Shown: positions 2,640 through 7,938 of the stretch, piece after piece
How the letters are laid out: every line of letters begins with the position of its first letter
How positions within the stretch are numbered: position 1 is the stretch's first letter
IMG/VR virus record: IMGVR_UViG_3300036876_000145
Location: 83,489-102,462 of that record
DNA length: 18,974 nt
Source: a virus
Lineage: Duplodnaviria > Heunggongvirae > Uroviricota > Caudoviricetes
Direction: 5' to 3' (one strand)
Program-made: the position numbers and the translations under genes
Notes under the pieces: generated by a model
The model's database searches: none
Told to the model about the DNA's origin: nothing
What the model saw: only the letters and a program-made list of their open reading frames with translations

Positions 2640-2718
2640 ATTCCGATGGCGTGAGCGGCGAAACCACTTGCCCTACAAGCAAGTATCATCGGGGGTTCGA
2701 GTCCCTCTCGGAATACCA
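2640..2718 (+). tRNA. tRNA-Val(UAC)-like with aberrant D-arm and C33
   Basis: Perfect 7-bp acceptor (ATTCCGA/TCGGAAT), A73 and an encoded CCA. T-arm is GGGGG-TTCGAGT-CCCTC. Anticodon stem is CTTGC/GCAAG with loop CCTACAA, giving anticodon TAC. No convincing 4-bp D-stem could be found in 2649-2665. Confidence 0.45.
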
Positions 2719-2729
2719 AATTTTAATGT

Positions 2730-2804
2730 GTGGGTGTCGTCCAATGGGAGGACTTTCGGTTTGCACCCGGAGAATGCGAGTTCGAGTCTCGTCACTCTAC
2801 ACCA
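2730..2804 (+). tRNA. tRNA-Ala(UGC)
   Basis: Acceptor GTGGGTG has the G3:U70 Ala identity pair. D-stem is GTCC/GGAC. Anticodon stem is TTCGG/CCGGA with loop TTTGCAC. The T-loop is TTCGAGT and CCA is encoded. There are two mismatches at the base of the acceptor and one extra nt before the discriminator. Confidence 0.55.
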
Positions 2805-2896
2805 AATGTGCCGTCCGCGACGGTGATAGATACCAGAAAGCTCTTCGGAGCGCTGGAATGGGGATCAGCCCCTTAGTCATCGCGGCTAAATTTATA

Positions 2897-2970
2897 AGCG
2901 GATTAGCCAAGTGGTTAAAGGCATCTGCCTGCAAAGCAGACAAGCACGGGTTCGAATCCCGTATCCGCTT
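2897..2970 (+). tRNA. tRNA-Cys(GCA)
   Basis: Perfect 7-bp acceptor (AGCGGAT/ATCCGCT) with a U73 discriminator, as expected for Cys. Anticodon stem is TCTGC/GCAGA with loop CTGCAAA. T-arm is ACGGG-TTCGAAT-CCCGT. CCA is not encoded. Confidence 0.75.
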
Positions 2971-2979
2971 CCCAAATTT

Positions 2980-3056
2980 GGGGGTATAGTTCCAACTGGT
3001 AGAACAGCGGCTTGTCGCGCCGATGGTTGCGGGTTCGAATCCCGTTACCCCCGCCA
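2980..3056 (+). tRNA. tRNA-Asp(GUC) variant (anticodon loop TTGTCGC with G37)
   Basis: Acceptor is GGGGGTA/TACCCCC with G73 and encoded CCA. D-stem is GTTC/GAAC. The anticodon stem has 4 bp plus a G:A mismatch, and the anticodon is GTC. T-arm is GCGGG-TTCGAAT-CCCGT. Confidence 0.55.
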
Positions 3057-3060
3057 GTTT

Positions 3061-3138
3061 GGTGTGTTGGAGGAGTCTGGTCTTCCTCGCTTCCCTGTCA
3101 CGGAAGATATCACACGGGTTCAAATCCCGTACACACCG
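3061..3138 (+). tRNA. tRNA-Asp(GUC)
   Basis: Acceptor is GGTGTGT/ACACACC with G73. Anticodon stem is CTTCC/GGAAG with the canonical Asp loop CTGTCAC. T-arm is ACGGG-TTCAAAT-CCCGT. CCA is not encoded. Confidence 0.75.
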
Positions 3139-3147
3139 CTTTCGTGA

Positions 3148-3179
3148 CTTCCTGAGTATTAAGTAGAGTACTCAGGAAG
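3148..3179 (+). promoter_or_regulatory. 11-bp perfect inverted repeat (CTTCCTGAGTA ... TACTCAGGAAG) sequestering the SD of the GIY-YIG gene
   Basis: The 3' arm contains the AGGAAGG Shine-Dalgarno, and the ATG at 3184 lies 4 nt after the stem. The loop is TTAAGTAGAG. No T-tract follows, so this is not an intrinsic terminator. Confidence 0.5.
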
Positions 3180-3183
3180 GTTC

Positions 3184-3834
3184 ATGATGAAATACACAGT
3201 CTACAAAACTGTGAATCTGGTCAACGGCAAGTTCTACATCGGTGTCCACAAGACGGACAATCCGAATGATGACTACCTTGGTTCTGGGAAGTTCATCAAA
3301 CGAGCCGTTGCGAAGTACGGAGAGCAGAATTTTCGCAAGGAAATTTTGGCTGTCTTTGAAATCCAGAGAGAAGCTTTCGATCTCGAAAAGAAACTCGTGG
3401 TTGAAGCGAAAGTTGATCCACTGTGTTACAACCTGAAAGCTGGCGGTGAAGGTGGGTTTGACTGGATCAATCGTAAGGGATTGAATAACTCGAACGAGAA
3501 CGGCGTGAAAGGAAATCGGGTTACAATTGGAAAAATAAAAACTGACCCAAAGGTAAAGAAGCGATTTACTGACAGGATCAATCGAGTTAGACAGTATCGT
3601 ACTCAAGACTACAAAGCTCGAATTCCTTCGATGTTACAAAAGTGGACAGGACAGCATCATACCGCCGAGACAAAGGCTAGACTTAGCGAAACGCATAAAG
3701 GTAAGAGCAACGGACGCTTTGGAAAACAGTGGATGTATCATCTCGAATCGCAGAGATCAAAGCCTGTCTCACCGGACGAGATCAATAGCCACATTGAACA
3801 AGGTTGGTTGATTGGTCGCCGGATGAAATTTTAG
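3184..3834 (+). CDS. GIY-YIG homing endonuclease (Seg/I-TevI-like) with a C-terminal NUMOD3-like repeat
   Basis: The N-terminus YTVYKTVNLVNGKFYIGV carries the GIY..YIG motif with downstream R and E residues. The C-terminal TGQHHTAETKARLSETHKGKSNGRFGKQW resembles NUMOD3 DNA-binding repeats. The gene sits inside the tRNA array. Confidence 0.85.
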   Translation: MMKYTVYKTVNLVNGKFYIGVHKTDNPNDDYLGSGKFIKRAVAKYGEQNFRKEILAVFEIQREAFDLEKKLVVEAKVDPLCYNLKAGGEGGFDWINRKGLNNSNENGVKGNRVTIGKIKTDPKVKKRFTDRINRVRQYRTQDYKARIPSMLQKWTGQHHTAETKARLSETHKGKSNGRFGKQWMYHLESQRSKPVSPDEINSHIEQGWLIGRRMKF

Positions 3835-3841
3835 GAGAGAC

Positions 3842-4054
3842 GTGAAGATTCTCTACGATGAACAGCGGCATCTGATCACGGTGCCGTACTCGAAAGAGAA
3901 TCTACATGAAGCAGCGCGGCAGTTGGGTATTAAGCGTTGCTGGTTTCACAAAGACCACTACGACGTTCCTAAGAGAATGATGTCTCGGATGTCGGAGACG
4001 GTAGCAGAAAAAGTTTCGCCGCGTGAAGTTTTGAAGATCGTGCGCGGCAAGTAA
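3842..4054 (+). CDS. DUF4031-like small phage protein (70 aa, HYDVP motif)
   Basis: GTG start with a GGAGAGA SD. The sequence MKILYDEQRHLITVPYSKENLHEAARQLGIKRCWFHKDHYDVPKRMMSR matches my recollection of the DUF4031 pattern (..A..lGl.r.Wfq...HYDl). The family assignment is from memory, not from a search. Confidence 0.55.
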   Translation: MKILYDEQRHLITVPYSKENLHEAARQLGIKRCWFHKDHYDVPKRMMSRMSETVAEKVSPREVLKIVRGK

Positions 4055-4058
4055 GTTT

Positions 4059-4135
4059 GGATGGATAGCCAAGTAGGAAAGGCGCTCCCCTGCAAAGGGA
4101 GTCATGCGGGGGTTCAATTCCCTCTCCATCCTCCA
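4059..4135 (+). tRNA. tRNA-Cys(GCA), second divergent copy
   Basis: Perfect acceptor GGATGGA/TCCATCC with U73 and encoded CCA. Anticodon stem is CTCCC/GGGAG with loop CTGCAAA. T-arm is GGGGG-TTCAATT-CCCTC. Confidence 0.75.
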
Positions 4136-4530
4136 AATGTACCAGTTCGGGACAACCGCTGGCAGGAAGTTTCTGCGGGAGGGAAAGTTCGGGGCTTCAT
4201 AGAGTACCGTGCGGGGTAACTCCCCGGCGACGGCGCAAGCCGTTGACAATTAGAGCTACAGAGACGAGTCACAGAAGGTGTGCTTGGAAGCGCGTAAGAT
4301 TCACGTCGGTAGTGTTGATGTGAAATGCCCGACCAAGTCCCCTGATGTGGGTGAAACGAGCAATCTTCACGGGAAGCAAGTGCAAATAGGCTGACAGGAA
4401 CTACTCGTTCCGTTATGAATCAGCGGGTAGCATGCTTGAGCGTTGGAGTAATTCAACGCCTAGACGAATGGTTGTCGCCGCGCAAGCGGAACAGAACCCC
4501 GGCTAATAGGACTGGTACAAGTTTATGAGT
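4136..4530 (+). other. about 395-nt noncoding, GC-rich, hairpin-dense region (candidate structured RNA or long leader) between tRNA-Cys and the HNH gene
   Basis: There is no plausible ORF on either strand apart from a spurious minus-strand ORF overlapping the tRNA. Local stems are present, for example GGGGTAACTCCCC and GCGCAAGC. Confidence 0.25.
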
Positions 4531-4542
4531 TTTTGAACTATG

Positions 4543-4568
4543 AGCGACCTATATTAGAGAGGTCGCTC
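4543..4568 (+). promoter_or_regulatory. 8-bp inverted repeat (GAGCGACC ... GGTCGCTC) placing the HNH SD/start at the loop/3'-arm junction
   Basis: The loop is TATATTAGAG. The SD GAGAGG (4557-4562) straddles the loop and 3' arm. The GTG at 4569 immediately follows the stem. Confidence 0.45.
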
Positions 4569-5006
4569 GTGACAAGTCAAAAAGAAGTTCAAAGACAATT
4601 AGGAATGAGTCGAGGAACCGCCAACTACAGATTGGCGCGTCTTTTACTCTTCAAATACATGCAGCAAGCTGGGGCGGACAACTGTTTTCGCTGCGGTCTA
4701 AAGCTTGAAACGGTTGAAGATTTTAGTATTGAGCATAAAAAACCGTGGTTGTACGCATCCCCAGATTTATATTGGGATTTGGAAAATATTGCTTTTTCGC
4801 ATCGCGCATGTAATTCGGGCGCAGCTAGACAGATCAATAAGACCAAAATGAGTCTTAGATCAGTAGGACCGGAAGGAACAAGTTGGTGTACGGAACATAA
4901 ACAGTTTCTTTCAGTCGATGAATTTCAAAAAAATTCCGCTATTTGGAACGGCTTACAAAGGCAATGCAAAGAATGCCGACAAAAGCGAAATAAAAAGCGG
5001 GCTTAG
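4569..5006 (+). CDS. HNH homing endonuclease (HNH_3-like)
   Basis: CFRCG...EHKKPW...HRACN is an HNH motif. The preferred start is GTG 4569, which has GAGAGG 6 nt upstream; the track's longest ORF starts at TTG 4533. The last 10 nt overlap the 5' end of tRNA-Gly. Confidence 0.8.
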   Translation: MTSQKEVQRQLGMSRGTANYRLARLLLFKYMQQAGADNCFRCGLKLETVEDFSIEHKKPWLYASPDLYWDLENIAFSHRACNSGAARQINKTKMSLRSVGPEGTSWCTEHKQFLSVDEFQKNSAIWNGLQRQCKECRQKRNKKRA

Positions 5007-5073
5007 CTCACGCTGGTAGAGCGCTGGTCTTCCAAACCGGAGGTAACGGGATCGTCGCCCGTAGTCCGCTCCA
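4997..5073 (+). tRNA. tRNA-Gly(UCC) with an unusual T-loop (ATCGTCG)
   Basis: Acceptor is GCGGGCT/AGTCCGC (one G:U pair) with U73 and encoded CCA. D-stem is GCTC/GAGC. Anticodon stem is CTGGT/ACCGG with loop CTTCCAA. Confidence 0.65.
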
Positions 5074-5084
5074 AGTTTAGATAT

Positions 5085-5160
5085 GGCGCACTCTGCTAAC
5101 GGCTAGGCAACCACGTTCTCAGCGTGTGAAATGTGGGTTCAAATCCCGCGTGCGCTACCA
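5085..5160 (+). tRNA. tRNA-Glu(CUC)
   Basis: Acceptor is GGCGCAC/GTGCGCT with A73 and encoded CCA. D-stem is TGCT/GGCA. Anticodon stem is CCACG/CGTGT (4 bp) with loop TTCTCAG. T-arm is GTGGG-TTCAAAT-CCCGC. Confidence 0.6.
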
Positions 5161-5167
5161 GATTTTG

Positions 5168-5224
5168 GCTGACCATGTTCGGCAAGGTCAGCGGTTGGGG
5201 GACATGGCTCAGTACAACCGCTGA
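5168..5224 (+). other. pair of mutually exclusive hairpins (GCTGACC/GGTCAGC 7 bp; TCAGCGGTTG/CAACCGCTGA 10 bp) in a tRNA spacer
   Basis: The 3' arm of hairpin 1 (5186-5192) overlaps the 5' arm of hairpin 2 (5189-5198). The segment is not tRNA-like. Confidence 0.4.
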
Positions 5225-5231
5225 TAACCGT

Positions 5232-5307
5232 GGGGCTATGGCGCAGTTGGGAGCGCGTAATCATGGCATGATTAAGGCCGTCGGTTCGAACCCGACTAGC
5301 TCCACCA
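5232..5307 (+). tRNA. tRNA-Ala(GGC)
   Basis: Acceptor GGGGCTA/TAGCTCC has G3:U70, with A73 and encoded CCA. D-stem is GCGC/GCGC. Anticodon stem is TAATC/GATTA with loop ATGGCAT. T-arm is GTCGG-TTCGAAC-CCGAC. Confidence 0.75.
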
Positions 5308-5313
5308 GATTTT

Positions 5314-5388
5314 GCGGAAGTAGTTCAGCGGTAGAATATTTCCTTGCCAAGGAAGGGGTCGCGGGTTCAAATCCCGCCTTCCGCTCCA
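5314..5388 (+). tRNA. tRNA-Gly(GCC)
   Basis: Acceptor is GCGGAAG/CTTCCGC with U73 and encoded CCA. Anticodon stem is TTTCC/GGAAG with loop TTGCCAA. T-arm is GCGGG-TTCAAAT-CCCGC. Confidence 0.8.
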
Positions 5389-5399
5389 AGTTTAGAAGT

Positions 5400-5461
5400 T
5401 CATGGATGCCTAGATGTCGGTGGCTAACCGAAAGGTCGCGGGTTCAATGTCCGTTCCATGT
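5400..5461 (+). pseudogene. 62-nt tRNA-like element lacking a D-arm (pseudo-tRNA or armless tRNA)
   Basis: There is a 6-bp acceptor-like closing stem (CATGGA/TCCATG), an anticodon-like hairpin GTCGG-TGGCTAA-CCGAA, and a T-arm-like GCGGG-TTCAATG-TCCGT. Only 9 nt lie between the acceptor and the anticodon stem. There is no spacer before the next tRNA. Confidence 0.35.
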
Positions 5462-5537
5462 GGGGCTATAGCGCAGTTGGGAGCGCGTCTCGTTCGCAAC
5501 GAGAAGGTCGTGAGTTCGAATCTCACTAGCTCCACCA
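5462..5537 (+). tRNA. tRNA-Ala(CGC)
   Basis: Acceptor GGGGCTA/TAGCTCC has G3:U70, with A73 and encoded CCA. Anticodon stem is TCTCG/CGAGA with loop TTCGCAA. T-arm is GTGAG-TTCGAAT-CTCAC. Confidence 0.75.
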
Positions 5538-5544
5538 AGTTATT

Positions 5545-5617
5545 GCGGGTGTAGTTCAATGGTAGAATATTCGGTTCCCAACCGAAAGATTTGTCGGTTC
5601 GAGTCCGACCATCCGCT
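5545..5617 (+). tRNA. tRNA-Gly(CCC)
   Basis: Acceptor is GCGGGTG/CATCCGC with U73; CCA is not encoded. Anticodon stem is TTCGG/CCGAA with loop TTCCCAA. T-arm is GTCGG-TTCGAGT-CCGAC. Confidence 0.75.
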
Positions 5618-5624
5618 CCGTTTT

Positions 5625-5768
5625 ATGAGAGAGTGTCCAAAGTGCGGTAAGAAAGAACAATGGGAAATCGGTTGGATTTCTACTACCAATGAATGGCGCT
5701 GGCATTGTCTGTCTTGTGATATTCGTTTTAATGATGATGGCGTAATTTACACACCAGAAAAAGTTTAG
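5625..5768 (+). CDS. 47-aa zinc-ribbon protein (CPKCG ... CLSCD)
   Basis: ATG at 5625 is in frame with the track ORF 5559-5768, whose upstream part overlaps tRNA-Gly and is rejected. Two CxxC pairs are present: MRECPKCGKKEQWEIGWISTTNEWRWHCLSCDIRFNDDGVIYTPEKV. The SD is weak. Confidence 0.4.
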   Translation: MRECPKCGKKEQWEIGWISTTNEWRWHCLSCDIRFNDDGVIYTPEKV

Positions 5769-5791
5769 GGCCGTGGGACTGCATTGGGGTG

Positions 5792-5819
5792 GTTCGAATC
5801 TCACTAGCTCCACCAAGTT
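5792..5819 (+). repeat. 28-bp exact direct repeat of the 3' end of tRNA-Ala(CGC) (5514-5541), giving a 3' tRNA fragment with no 5' half
   Basis: GTTCGAATCTCACTAGCTCCACCAAGTT is identical at both sites. The upstream sequence at the second site cannot form a T-stem or an acceptor. Confidence 0.6.
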
Positions 5820-5822
5820 TAC

Positions 5823-5926
5823 GTAGGCTTCCGAGGGATACCTCGGTGACAGTTGTTCTGAGGTCATCTCTTCATGAGGGGCTGAACAGGGAACGGCAGC
5901 GTGGGGAAACCCACAAGCCTACACCA
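5823..5926 (+). ncRNA. 104-nt structured RNA of unknown class, closed by the 8-bp stem GTAGGCTT/AAGCCTAC and ending in ACCA
   Basis: The internal hairpins are perfect: CCGAGG-GATA-CCTCGG (6 bp, 4-nt loop) and GTGGG-GAAA-CCCAC (GNRA tetraloop). Its position in the array and its A-CCA end are tRNA-like, but there is no 7-nt T-loop. Confidence 0.35.
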
Positions 5927-5929
5927 TTT

Positions 5930-6005
5930 GCGCTGTTAGATTAGCGGTAAAATCGTCACCATGACAAGGTGAAAATCGGGGGTTCGATTCCCTCACGGCG
6001 CACCA
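5930..6005 (+). tRNA. tRNA-Val(GAC)
   Basis: Acceptor is GCGCTGT/ACGGCGC with A73 and encoded CCA. D-stem is GATT/AATC. Anticodon stem is TCACC/GGTGA with loop ATGACAA. T-arm is GGGGG-TTCGATT-CCCTC. Confidence 0.75.
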
Positions 6006-6017
6006 GTTTTTAAATAT

Positions 6018-6095
6018 GGCGTTGTCTTCTAAATGGTCTAGGAAAACTGACTTTCAATCAGTGGAATGCCGGTTCAACTCCGGTCAACGCTACCA
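6018..6095 (+). tRNA. tRNA-Glu(UUC)
   Basis: Acceptor is GGCGTTG/CAACGCT with A73 and encoded CCA. Anticodon stem is ACTGA/TCAGT with loop CTTTCAA. T-arm is GCCGG-TTCAACT-CCGGT. Confidence 0.75.
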
Positions 6096-6102
6096 GAATT
6101 GA

Positions 6103-6177
6103 GAGGGAGTAGCTCAGCGGTAGAGCAGAATATTGCCAATATTCAGGTCGCGGGTTCAACTCCCGTCTCCCTCTCCA
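6103..6177 (+). tRNA. tRNA-Gly(GCC), second copy
   Basis: Acceptor is GAGGGAG/CTCCCTC with U73 and encoded CCA. D-stem is GCTC/GAGC. Anticodon stem is GAATA/TATTC with loop TTGCCAA. T-arm is GCGGG-TTCAACT-CCCGT. Confidence 0.75.
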
Positions 6178-6372
6178 ACATTTATGCGAATCTATTCAAA
6201 AGTTTATTTTCGCTTTATGGTGTGTTATGAGAAAACTAAAGAGACTAAGCAAGGTCAAACTCGTGAAGGAAATGTCCAGGGAGAGGGTGCCAGTCCCCGC
6301 GACCCGCAAGATTGAAAATAAGAAAAAGAAATTTTTGCGTTACTTAGAAACACATTGGCAGGAAGATGAATT

Positions 6373-6448
6373 GGGGGTATAGCTCAGCTGGGAGAGCGCA
6401 TCGTTTGCAACGATGAGGTCGTCGGTTCGATCCCGTCTACCTCCACCA
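6373..6448 (+). tRNA. tRNA-Ala(UGC), bacterial-type (5' end GGGGGTATAGCTCAGCTGGGAGAGCGC)
   Basis: Acceptor GGGGGTA/TACCTCC has G3:U70, with A73 and encoded CCA. Anticodon stem is CATCG/CGATG with loop TTTGCAA. The T-loop is TTCGATC. Confidence 0.8.
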
Positions 6449-6463
6449 AAATTTAGGGGATGT

Positions 6464-6823
6464 ATGTTAAAGGAATTAAACGACTACAACTGGGCTGAAG
6501 TATTTGGTGAGGGAAGCGGTGGAAACTGCTTTTCGATCAAGCCAAATCGTGCCCCACAAGATACGGAGACATCCATTGGTACGTTTTCCCGCGAGGATGT
6601 AAAAAAACTCTATGGGCAATCTGACGGTGAAAATGATGAACAAAGTTGGGTATGTTGGGGTAAACTAAAAGACGGTCGCTGGTTTGTTGCTCGTGGCGAC
6701 TGCGATTACACCGGCTGGGATTGCAGTGCATCTAATAGCGGAGATGTTGCATCGTCTAAAAAAGATATTATCCGTTTTGGGCTTGATGCTAACGAGCGAT
6801 CACGTTTTAATTTGACGATTTAA
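6464..6823 (+). CDS. hypothetical protein (119 aa, Trp/Cys/Gly-rich)
   Basis: Internal ATG at 6464 of track ORF 6413-6823 has AGGGGA upstream; the part of the track ORF upstream of 6464 overlaps tRNA-Ala. No recognisable motifs. Confidence 0.55.
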   Translation: MLKELNDYNWAEVFGEGSGGNCFSIKPNRAPQDTETSIGTFSREDVKKLYGQSDGENDEQSWVCWGKLKDGRWFVARGDCDYTGWDCSASNSGDVASSKKDIIRFGLDANERSRFNLTI

Positions 6824-7073: not shown

Positions 7074-7766
7074 ATGCCAAAAATAGTTTTTATTTCAGAT
7101 ACTCATGGGTTACACGGTCAGATGCAGGTGCCCGAAGGAGATATTTTAGTTCATGCTGGAGATATGACTAATGTAGGGCGTATAAATGAAGTTGCTGCCT
7201 TGGGCGTATGGCTCCGTGAAATGGAAAAACGTTTTAAATTTATCGTGATCGTCGCGGGTAATCACGATTGGCTTTTTCAGAAAAATAGAGCCTTGGCTGA
7301 AAGCCTGATAAATCAAGGTACAATGGGAGAAGCTACGGGTAAAATCATCTATTTACAAGATAGTGGAGTTACAATTGATGGCTTAAAAATACATGGAAGT
7401 CCTCAAACTCCTTGGTTTTTTGATTGGGCCTTTAATGTACGCCGAGGAGAACTTAAGCCCTATTGGGATAAGATCCCTGAAGGTCTGGACATATTAATTA
7501 CTCACGGTCCTCCCAGTGGTATACTGGATCAAGCAGACCCTCATTTAGGCAGTGAACATGTAGGCTGTGAAGAACTTATGGAAGCGGTGGAGCGCACCAA
7601 ACCAAAAATCCATGTATTCGGACATATACATGGCGGGTATGGTAAAATGGAACATGTGAATACCACATTTATCAATGCTTCAATTTGCGATGAACGGTAC
7701 AAACCGATTAACGCCCCTTGGGTTATTGATATGGAGCCCCGTGATACACATGGCGAAGAAAAATAA
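7074..7766 (+). CDS. calcineurin-like metallophosphoesterase (binuclear metal phosphatase/phosphodiesterase)
   Basis: The MPP signature motifs are present: FISDTHG, HAGDMTN, VAGNHD, ITHGPP and GHIHGGYG. Confidence 0.85.
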   Translation: MPKIVFISDTHGLHGQMQVPEGDILVHAGDMTNVGRINEVAALGVWLREMEKRFKFIVIVAGNHDWLFQKNRALAESLINQGTMGEATGKIIYLQDSGVTIDGLKIHGSPQTPWFFDWAFNVRRGELKPYWDKIPEGLDILITHGPPSGILDQADPHLGSEHVGCEELMEAVERTKPKIHVFGHIHGGYGKMEHVNTTFINASICDERYKPINAPWVIDMEPRDTHGEEK

Positions 7767-7938
7767 GCTACCTTCGGCGGCTTTATTGTTAAAAACTTTG
7801 GCTGGTGTAATGGCTATGGGATTACCTTACAAAAAAGGAATCTGTATATCTTGTGGGGTAACAGAAAGTAAAAAACATCACACTGACTGCTACTATCTAG
7901 ACGCTTTGAATTTGATAGTGAAATATTATAAGCCATGA
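7750..7938 (+). CDS. hypothetical small protein (63 aa, Cys/His-rich C-terminus), start overlapping the phosphoesterase stop
   Basis: ATG at 7750 lies within the phosphoesterase 3' end, suggesting translational coupling. It is the internal start of track ORF 7675-7938, whose upstream part overlaps the phosphoesterase CDS and is rejected. Confidence 0.4.
   Translation: MAKKNKLPSAALLLKTLAGVMAMGLPYKKGICISCGVTESKKHHTDCYYLDALNLIVKYYKP

Follow-up and report, generated by a model that had tools for sequence, protein, structure and literature searches.

A structured RNA gene ending in A-CCA, with an invariant hairpin tip, in the tRNA arrays of uncultured soil phages

Results

We analyzed an 18,974-nucleotide (nt) stretch of DNA, referred to here as the window (positions 83,489 to 102,462 of IMG/VR virus record IMGVR_UViG_3300036876_000145), and we report on a 104-nt RNA gene, element E, which lies at 5823-5926 on the plus strand in the transfer RNA (tRNA) cluster of an uncultured peat-soil phage. 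E is found inside an array of 16 tRNA genes (2640-6448), on the same strand as these tRNAs. A leader, AGUUUAC (5816-5822), separates the preceding CCA from G1 of E, and a UUU spacer (5927-5929) separates the end of E from tRNA-Val(gac), located by tRNA search at 5930-6005 directly 3' of E. A preliminary description had proposed that a structured RNA with a tRNA-like 3' end, distinct from a canonical tRNA, occupies a tRNA slot at this place and may be a tRNA-like or decoy RNA.

From 5' to 3', E reads GUAGGCUU-CCGAGG-GAUA-CCUCGG-UGACA-(46-nt arm)-AGC-GUGGG-GAAA-CCCAC-AAGCCUAC-ACCA. Its predicted fold is a four-way junction ending in A-CCA, composed of a closing helix (H1), a hairpin (H2), a long arm (H3) and a further hairpin (H4); both folding and a homolog, E2 (see below), point to this architecture. 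The 5' strand of H1 (GUAGGCUU, 5823-5830) pairs with its 3' strand (AAGCCUAC, 5915-5922) in an acceptor-like helix of 8 base pairs (bp). H2 (5831-5846), a 6-bp hairpin with the 4-nt loop GAUA, abuts H1 without a linker. The linker UGACA (J2/3, 5847-5851) leads to H3 (5852-5897). In this arm, a 4x4 internal loop separates an outer stem of 8 bp from an inner one of 7 bp, which contains a bulged C and is capped by the 7-nt loop UUCAUGA. After the linker AGC (J3/4, 5898-5900), H4 (5901-5914), a 5-bp hairpin with the GNRA tetraloop GAAA, abuts the 3' strand of H1 at the position of a T arm, and an unpaired A with an encoded CCA follows (5923-5926). The features that the preliminary description had read here are all present: the 8-bp closing helix (GTAGGCTT/AAGCCTAC) followed by A and CCA at the ends of 5823-5926, the CCGAGG-GATA-CCTCGG hairpin (6 bp, 4-nt loop), the 5-bp GTGGG-GAAA-CCCAC GNRA hairpin, and the lack of a 7-nt T-loop. 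Thus, its observation is confirmed in every detail; its interpretation is partly supported, as set out below.

The fold is unusually stable. The minimum free energy of E is -48.1 kcal/mol (z = -4.4; 0 of 200 shuffles as stable), and a separate shuffle set gave z = -5.0. Pair probabilities are 0.95-1.0 in the four main helices, except for the last H1 pair (U8-A93, 0.76); the junction is still predicted when E is folded with 250 nt of context, and per nucleotide E is predicted to be more stable than the adjacent tRNAs. The fold is also strand-specific, because it includes five G.U pairs: the minus strand reaches only -37.8 kcal/mol, and a covariance model of E gives 130 bits for the plus strand against 24 bits for the minus strand. 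We found no promoter-like or terminator-like sites near E.

Comparative evidence came from a homolog. The covariance model built from E (R1) matched L064 at 4827-4929 (E2; 91.7 bits, E-value 2e-19), in one of the arrays fetched beside more distant homologs of a neighboring metallophosphatase, and an identical copy was found in L065 (339-441). E2 is 103 nt long and 72% identical to E. The two differ at 29 positions, 22 of which fall in paired columns, and all 22 preserve pairing: among 34 pairs, 10 are changed on both sides, 2 on one side, and none is broken. In H1, A3-U98 is G-C in E2 (both sides) and G4-C97 is G.U (one side). Two pairs of H2 are changed on both sides (C-G to U-A, A-U to G-C) and its loop is CGUA, so that the loops of both short hairpins are tetraloops in both RNAs; in H4, two pairs are changed on both sides and GAAA is replaced by GAGA, which is still GNRA. 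In the outer stem of H3, five pairs are double changes, a U.G to G.U swap among them, and a sixth is a single change; the inner stem is unchanged. Folded alone, E2 gives the same junction, the helix lengths (8, 6, 8 and 5) are the same, and the H1/H2 and H4/H1 junctions are linkerless in both. The J3/4 linker, the terminal A-CCA, the AGUUUAC leader before E2 in L064 and the UUU spacer after it are likewise identical, and J2/3 is UGGG in E2. In the alignment of E and E2, 68 of 68 cells pair, and 34-49% pair if the 3' partners are slid by 1-3 columns. A shuffle control says little when there are two sequences only; the strength of the comparison lies in the slid-partner control and in the lack of any disruptive change. 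The comparative check for conserved helices in a homologous array, which the preliminary description had suggested, was therefore positive.

One part of the RNA does not vary. E and E2 match without a break over alignment columns 36-66, their longest such run, which is a 31-nt apical module of H3 (CUGAGGUCAUCUCUUCAUGAGGGGCUGAACA, window 5858-5888) with the invariant core GAGGTCATCTCTTCATGAGGGGCTGAACA. The tip reads GAGG-N10-AUG-AGG-GGC-UGA, and its loop holds a 6-nt palindrome, UCAUGA. Because the rest of the molecule varies with pairing kept and the tip is unchanging, the tip is the likely working part. To judge from this alignment, free variation where pairing alone matters, together with one fixed tip, appears to be the signature of a functional RNA with its specificity in the tip.

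The same palindrome occurs in a separate 60-nt RNA (Y), ending in CCACCA, that we observed in related arrays (L033 7444-7503, L038, L044, and L021 5917-5976). The hairpin loop of Y is GA-UCAUGA-G in three of these and AG-ACAUGU-A in L021, such that the palindrome is kept by compensatory change, and the stem covaries too (CCGC/GCGG vs. UUGC/GCAA). UCAUGA is present in the loop of E as well.

We considered whether E could be an unusual decoding tRNA of the tRNA-Sec or allo-tRNA type, with anticodon CAU or UCA in the UUCAUGA loop. The tRNA-Sec-like dimensions noted in the preliminary description are real and are kept in both E and E2: an 8-bp acceptor, a 6-bp stem with a 4-nt loop at the D position, a 5-bp stem abutting the acceptor at the T position, and A-CCA. 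Moreover, allo-tRNAs with such D arms occur in soil Acidobacteria and phages (PMC5389517). However, a 7-nt T-loop, a D-loop and a variable arm are all missing from E, and the distance from the putative anticodon loop to CCA is wrong for the ribosome, since the arm has ~15 pairs plus an internal loop and its outer 8 bp are backed by covariation (five double changes). ARAGORN found no tRNA in E in standard, intron-tolerant, low-threshold or mitochondrial modes, and the Rfam tRNA model (RF00005, gathering score 29 bits) did not match 5823-5926 at an E-value <= 10. We therefore regard this identity as very improbable. At gathering thresholds, Rfam offered no family for E in the window, and at an E-value <= 10 it returned within 5760-5990 only tRNA-Val, a permuted transfer-messenger RNA (tmRNA; 15.3 bits) and a tmRNA 3' end (6.6 bits). 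Thus, the description of E as a structured RNA with a tRNA-like 3' end that is not a canonical tRNA holds, in that tRNA detectors reject it and the Rfam/Infernal check gave no significant match to a known family.

We next turn to how E came to lie in the array. Over 5400-6500, seven independent assemblies of the window's phage population, from peat or bog samples in ENA and JGI, show 100% identity, and ~0.1% of sites differ elsewhere in the window; being identical across the array, these copies are uninformative. The nearest divergent strain, L046, is ~95% identical overall, with 5 differences in the 190 bases to the left of E (5604-5793). Between the Zn-ribbon open reading frame (ORF) and tRNA-Val(gac), L046 has an 80-nt tRNA-Ala(cgc) (198-277) and no E; this tRNA-Ala is irregular, called by ARAGORN and not by the Rfam tRNA model at an E-value <= 1. 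The match between the window and L046 runs to 5793, after which the window has TCGAATCTCACTAGCTCCACCAAGTTTAC, E and TTT. The tRNA-Val(gac) of the window then differs from that of L046 in the anticodon stem and T arm up to 5993 and is identical again beyond. This alignment delimits a patch on the plus strand (5794-5993) made up of a tRNA-Ala 3' end, E, and the anticodon stem and T arm of tRNA-Val(gac), with differences clustered at 5956-5993 and the next one at 6096. The L046 alignment thus shows that E entered by a recombination patch of ~200 nt from an unsampled donor array.

Directly upstream of E, alignment to L046 identifies the remnant of a tRNA-Ala(cgc)-like gene (5768-5815, plus strand), in which the 5' acceptor strand and D region are fused to a T-loop and 3' end. 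The latter segment is identical to that of the tRNA-Ala at 5462-5537, and a 28-nt exact repeat links the two places (5514-5541 and 5792-5819). The left crossover was illegitimate, leaving the remnant behind. Of the claim that E sits in a tRNA slot, the tRNA-like spacing stands (3 nt to tRNA-Val(gac) at 5930); the slot itself is not ancestral, having been made by a recombination patch that destroyed a tRNA-Ala-like gene. Nor is E as prevalent as a regular slot would imply: just 2 of ~12 related arrays have it, and the closest strain does not. E2 is flanked by tRNA-Glu(ctc) and tRNA-Val(cac), such that both RNAs are directly 5' of a tRNA-Val, in different slots. The different slots, together with the patch in the window, lead us to consider E a cassette that has moved by recombination between tRNA genes. 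Its carriers belong to a clade of uncultured soil and peat phages with related contigs reaching 330-460 kb.

E might also be a non-functional relic, either a decayed tRNA or a scar of frequent recombination among tRNA genes, given that a true tRNA remnant lies directly upstream (5768-5815), that the illegitimate crossover by which E entered destroyed a tRNA-Ala-like gene, and that the nearest strain does without E. Against decay, 34 of 34 pairs are kept at 28% divergence, with 10 double changes and GNRA remaining GNRA, which comes close to refuting it; E has no residual likeness to any tRNA and is more stable than the neighboring real tRNAs. A relic is highly unlikely.

The 8-bp terminal inverted repeats of E, its presence or absence between strains and its different slots in the two phages would also fit a DNA-level element, that is, a miniature inverted-repeat mobile element or a protein-binding palindrome. 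However, the five G.U pairs, one of which is flipped in E2, would be mismatches in DNA, the minus strand folds 10 kcal/mol worse, E is single copy per locus in the 413 kb searched, and there is no target-site duplication. We give this explanation very little credence.

The remnant also bears on the permuted tmRNA match. If E were part of a two-piece tmRNA, with an acceptor piece at 5789-5816 and a coding piece starting from GGGGCUG (5878), GGGGCUG could pair with UAGCUCC to give the G3:U70 pair, and the Rfam tmRNA_permuted model (RF04321) does match 5789-5895 (E-value 0.25). Its score is far under the gathering score of 47, however, and L046 and the 28-nt repeat identify the presumed acceptor piece as the 3' terminus of a copied tRNA-Ala. 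A tag frame and pseudoknots would not fit into the 52 nt between GGGGCUG and the start of tRNA-Val; no tmRNA is called by ARAGORN; and E itself has A3-U70 and E2 has G3-C70, rather than G3:U70. Finally, the upstream neighbor of E2 is a normal tRNA-Glu, and GGGGCUG is nevertheless present there, inside helix H3, a context that refutes the idea. We find a tmRNA piece barely credible.

The constant position of E relative to tRNA-Val raises another possibility, namely that E is not a free trans-acting RNA and instead acts in cis as a structured 5' extension of tRNA-Val, forming a dimeric precursor and controlling or ordering tRNA-Val maturation. Dimeric tRNA precursors occur in phage T4. Consistent with a leader, both E and E2 lie directly 5' of a tRNA-Val with an identical UUU spacer, and E arrived together with two thirds of tRNA-Val(gac) in one recombination patch. 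However, the two tRNA-Val genes encode different isoacceptors (gac and cac) and are quite different in sequence, ~10 related arrays have the same tRNA-Val genes and no E, and a mere leader would need neither the invariant 31-nt tip nor the encoded CCA. We consider a leader role unlikely, if less so than the explanations above.

We also looked for further relatives. Searches with R1 of 345 kb of loci recovered through a tRNA-Val 18-mer found no relative of E, and R2, a two-sequence model of E and E2, found no third member in 413 kb of related loci; nor did a search of 97 kb of arrays with filters off, whose best match (13.5 bits) was on a tRNA. Neither model matched the T4 tRNA region (L055) or part of the Tunturi_5 array. 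In GenBank phages, blastn returned tRNA matches only, and exact-pattern scans of IMG/VR with the 3' 26-mer, the H2 19-mer and the linked tRNA-Val variant returned no match. A JGI metagenome scan with the tRNA-Val 5' 18-mer recovered related arrays, none of which had E. As for protein anchors, a 119-amino-acid neighbor is widespread but not syntenic, we found no relatives of the Zn-ribbon ORF, and distant metallophosphatase loci in IMG/VR had no arrays. Two sets of candidates were rejected as chance matches: five from an IMG/VR scan in which the closing helix was fixed and the interior left free, all within a single family of protein-coding genes, and three in coding DNA from GTDB representative genomes, found with a 20-mer of the arm that included variable bases.

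The array encodes a likely 5' processing enzyme for its products. A bacterial type-A ribonuclease P (RNase P) RNA gene is found at 4139-4522 on the plus strand (RF00010, 169 bits), and further genes of this type are found in five related arrays (L021 2506-2884, L022 67-441, L061 4137-4454, L064 3543-3876 and L068 3667-4000; 162-183 bits). In these six arrays the RNA is complete and lies between tRNA-Cys and tRNA-Gly, with an HNH endonuclease ORF intervening in the window. The window's RNase P RNA keeps a CGGGUAG segment, which holds the GGU of L15. In Escherichia coli M1 RNA, the GGU of that segment pairs with the 3' RCCA of tRNA. A blastn search of GenBank phages with the RNase P RNA gene gave no match, and full-text literature searches found no report of a phage-encoded RNase P RNA.

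A coaxial acceptor/T-stem stack of about 12-13 bp followed by 3' RCCA suffices for bacterial RNase P, as minihelix substrates, 4.5S RNA and tmRNA illustrate. Both E and E2 have the corresponding feature, a linkerless stack of 8 + 5 bp followed by ACCA, and since this is what a minihelix substrate needs, we infer that RNase P, of either the host or the phage, could cut the 5' end of E at G5823. E would be cotranscribed with the tRNAs; its 3' end would be released by the RNase P cut of tRNA-Val at 5930, after which exonucleases would remove UUU back to the encoded CCA. This would yield a discrete and very stable RNA of ~104 nt. Thus, from its sequence, E is probably processed by the tRNA machinery.

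Another non-decoding tRNA look-alike is found in related arrays. Z, a tRNA-like RNA, is located directly 5' of tRNA-Val(gac) in L021 (5985-6073), L033 (7511-7602), L038 (1207-1295, reverse complement), L042 (450-539) and L044 (9205-9293). It begins with GU, scores 41.7 bits on the Rfam tRNA model and has canonical D and T loops; it ends in UACACCA in L021, L033, L038 and L044, and in UACAC, abutting tRNA-Val, in L042. The anticodon arm of Z is a closed hairpin of 12-13 pairs, in two length classes, capped by UUCG, UGCG or GAAA, and so Z does not decode. This hairpin is hypervariable, with compensatory changes between near-identical arrays, and the acceptor, D and T arms are invariant. We rejected the idea that Z is an intron-containing tRNA, as ARAGORN gives different anticodons for different variants. 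Z resembles E in being non-decoding and in its place directly 5' of tRNA-Val(gac) (for E, in the window). In contrast to E, Z varies at the arm tip, where E is fixed, and is fixed where E varies, and it has the D and T loops that E lacks. We detected no homology between Z and E by blastn, nhmmer or covariance model. Z and E together indicate that non-decoding tRNA look-alikes recur in these arrays.

We noted several further structured RNAs in these arrays. A mini tRNA-like RNA of ~60 nt is present in the window (5402-5461), in L022 (1838-1898) and in L036 (7160-7220, reverse complement). Its closing helix of 5-6 bp covaries (CAUGGA/UCCAUG, ACGGA/UCCGU, ACAGG/CCUGU), and it has one nested hairpin and a canonical T arm (GCGGGUUCRAUGUCCGY), with no D arm and no CCA; the bacterial tRNA search misses it, and only the mitochondrial mode of ARAGORN calls it. 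A structured spacer between tRNA-Ala(tgc) and the next tRNA (window 2801-2895; L036 6071-6189; L064 2759-2855) has the form GUGCCGUCCGCGACGG...GGGG-loop-CCCC...CGCGGC, with a covarying inner hairpin and no match to an Rfam family. An RNA-like element of ~130-150 nt, with the consensus ..CGAGAYWCGA..UCCGRGWAAYCCGA..GACACA, occupies the slot between tRNA-Ala(cgc) and tRNA-Val(gac) in L030 (196-342, reverse complement) and L061 (4790-4921), and another slot in L021 (about 3040-3173) and L044 (about 7710-7845); the L030 copy has no Rfam match at an E-value <= 1. After tRNA-Val(gac), a structured element of ~170 nt is found in L021 (6152-6328), L033 (7681-7854), L044 (9372-9545) and L022 (about 2075-2235), and is absent from the window. 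It has the core GGGGAAUAyrkCGAAUACCC followed by several hairpins, and no Rfam family reaches its gathering score in L021 or L022. Finally, a short tRNA-Ala-like RNA of ~57 nt (GGGCGUCCG..GGGUGCCAAAUCCCA..ACGUCCACCA), with G3:U70 in its closing helix, is not called as a tRNA; it follows tRNA-Glu(ttc) in L036 (about 7510-7566) and tRNA-Val(cac) in L064 (about 5043-5100) and L068 (about 5148-5205).

The gene content of the arrays is also distinctive. The window's array (2640-6448) holds solely tRNAs for GNN codons (Val, Ala, Asp, Glu and Gly) plus Cys and is apparently sorted by first codon base. The comparison covered this array and those of L021, L033, L036, L044, L061, L064 and L068; tRNA-Val(cac) is absent from the window and present in most related arrays of comparable coverage. 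Two ORFs lie inside the window's tRNA array, one GIY-YIG/NUMOD3 (SegE-like; 3184-3834) and one HNH endonuclease-like (4533-5006), a parallel to segB of the T4 tRNA cluster. Inside their arrays, L064 (5329-6033) and L068 (5406-6017) encode a short protein of 203-234 amino acids that carries the core domain of class II aminoacyl-tRNA synthetases (Pfam tRNA-synt_2b); the L064 ORF is ~400 nt downstream of E2, and no counterpart was seen in the window.

Discussion

We conclude that E is a real RNA gene, belonging to a previously undescribed, small and patchily distributed family of non-coding RNAs. What the RNA does is a matter of graded confidence. We think it rather probable that E is a small RNA built on a tRNA scaffold, with the tip of H3 as its effector. 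Its chassis would be tRNA-like, with the 8-bp acceptor-like helix stacking on the 5-bp hairpin ahead of A and the encoded CCA, and with a 6-bp hairpin and its 4-nt loop at the site of the D arm; tetraloops replace the T-loop/D-loop elbow, and the third arm is ~3 times too long. In such an RNA, the H3 tip would be a site that binds a partner (protein, ribosome or RNA) or may dimerize, and the tRNA-like part would serve as a scaffold for processing and stability, possibly also mimicking the acceptor end of tRNA. Decoding by E is excluded, because E has no elbow and because ~15 pairs and an internal loop, where a tRNA has 5 pairs, separate its 7-nt loop from the junction. In how it works, E is like a tRNA at its acceptor end only. 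The decoy role raised in the preliminary description would be one version of a tRNA-scaffolded effector.

Several points weigh against this interpretation. Two distinct members are known, so that the covariation rests on one pairwise comparison, and E is dispensable, as it is missing from L046, the closest strain, and from ~10 related arrays. A scan of the E and E2 loci for targets complementary to the tip returned self-complementarity and a one-sided match to tRNA-Glu, with no site common to both phages. With respect to maturation, residue -1 of E is C rather than the U that RNase P prefers, E has no T-loop for contact with the RNase P S-domain, and its mature ends are predicted ones.

A bolder extension is that E is a natural tRNA-scaffolded effector among a wider repertoire of non-decoding tRNA mimics in large-phage arrays, matured with the phage's own RNase P RNA. 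Its tip, with a GAGG resembling a Shine-Dalgarno sequence, a loop-exposed AUG, two codons and UGA, could engage host translation, for instance by acting as a minigene or 30S trap and so sequestering ribosomes or peptidyl-tRNA. Another possibility is that it binds a host protein of defense or tRNA handling while the acceptor-like end mimics tRNA. We put this forward as a speculation that we ourselves consider doubtful.

Were a partner of the tip to be identified, a new kind of phage interference with host translation or with tRNA-directed defense might come to light. Arrays that carry RNase P RNA and other structured RNAs suggest that the pathway of tRNA transcription and processing is a general small-RNA platform of large soil phages, and the arrays around E, which have an RNase P RNA of their own and more structured RNAs of no known class, may be a larger story than E.

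E belongs to none of four known families, namely tRNA, tRNA-Sec/allo-tRNA, tmRNA, and the T4 RNAC/RNAD RNAs, because we tested for their defining features and found them missing. With canonical tRNA, E shares the acceptor helix, discriminator and CCA, but not the T-loop/D-loop elbow or the 5-bp anticodon stem. With bacterial tRNA-Sec, it shares the 8-bp acceptor helix, a long stem with a tetraloop at the D position and a 13-bp acceptor branch; tRNA-Sec and allo-tRNAs have acceptor branches of 8/5, 8/4 or 9/3 and a 6-bp D stem with a tetraloop. In forest and peat soils, Acidobacteria and phages are sources of allo-tRNAs, some of which apparently have no part in translation (PMC5389517). Unlike these RNAs, E has no 7-nt T-loop, variable arm or linker between acceptor and D stem, and the arm at the anticodon position, which in those RNAs has a 7-nt loop on a 5-6-bp stem, is ~3 times too long. 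E has just three hairpins. The tRNA-like domain of tmRNA resembles E in placing an acceptor helix with CCA on a non-tRNA body, and E does have a very short frame (AUG AGG GGC UGA), but E has no G3:U70, T-loop, pseudoknots or tag-like frame.

Engineered tRNA scaffolds for RNA expression, reportedly described by Ponchon and Dardel in 2007, share a logic with E: a functional module replaces the anticodon arm, and the body provides RNase P processing and nuclease protection. Those scaffolds are artificial and keep the full tRNA elbow, whereas E is natural and has lost it; the chassis of E would be their counterpart in nature.

Of known systems, the T4 pair RNAC and RNAD (species 1 and 2 RNAs), whose roles are still unexplained (PMC3014915, PMC9697503), comes closest in kind to E. 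That phage tRNA clusters contain a few stable RNAs with no assigned function is long established, and RNAC and RNAD have defied explanation for decades. Like E, these are small RNAs on the tRNA strand, directly beside or within the phage tRNA genes; they are stable and 119-139 nt long, and their cluster also holds a homing endonuclease gene (segB). RNAC combines a closing helix with a T-arm-like hairpin, and a CCA comes after RNAD. RNAC keeps the canonical T-loop GUUCGAAUC where E has a GNRA tetraloop, so that the architecture differs, and there is no homology of sequence or structure between these RNAs and E, R1 and R2 having no match in L055. We therefore see E as a second example, unrelated to RNAC and RNAD and with clear comparative support, of a chassis that does not decode and carries an invariant module.

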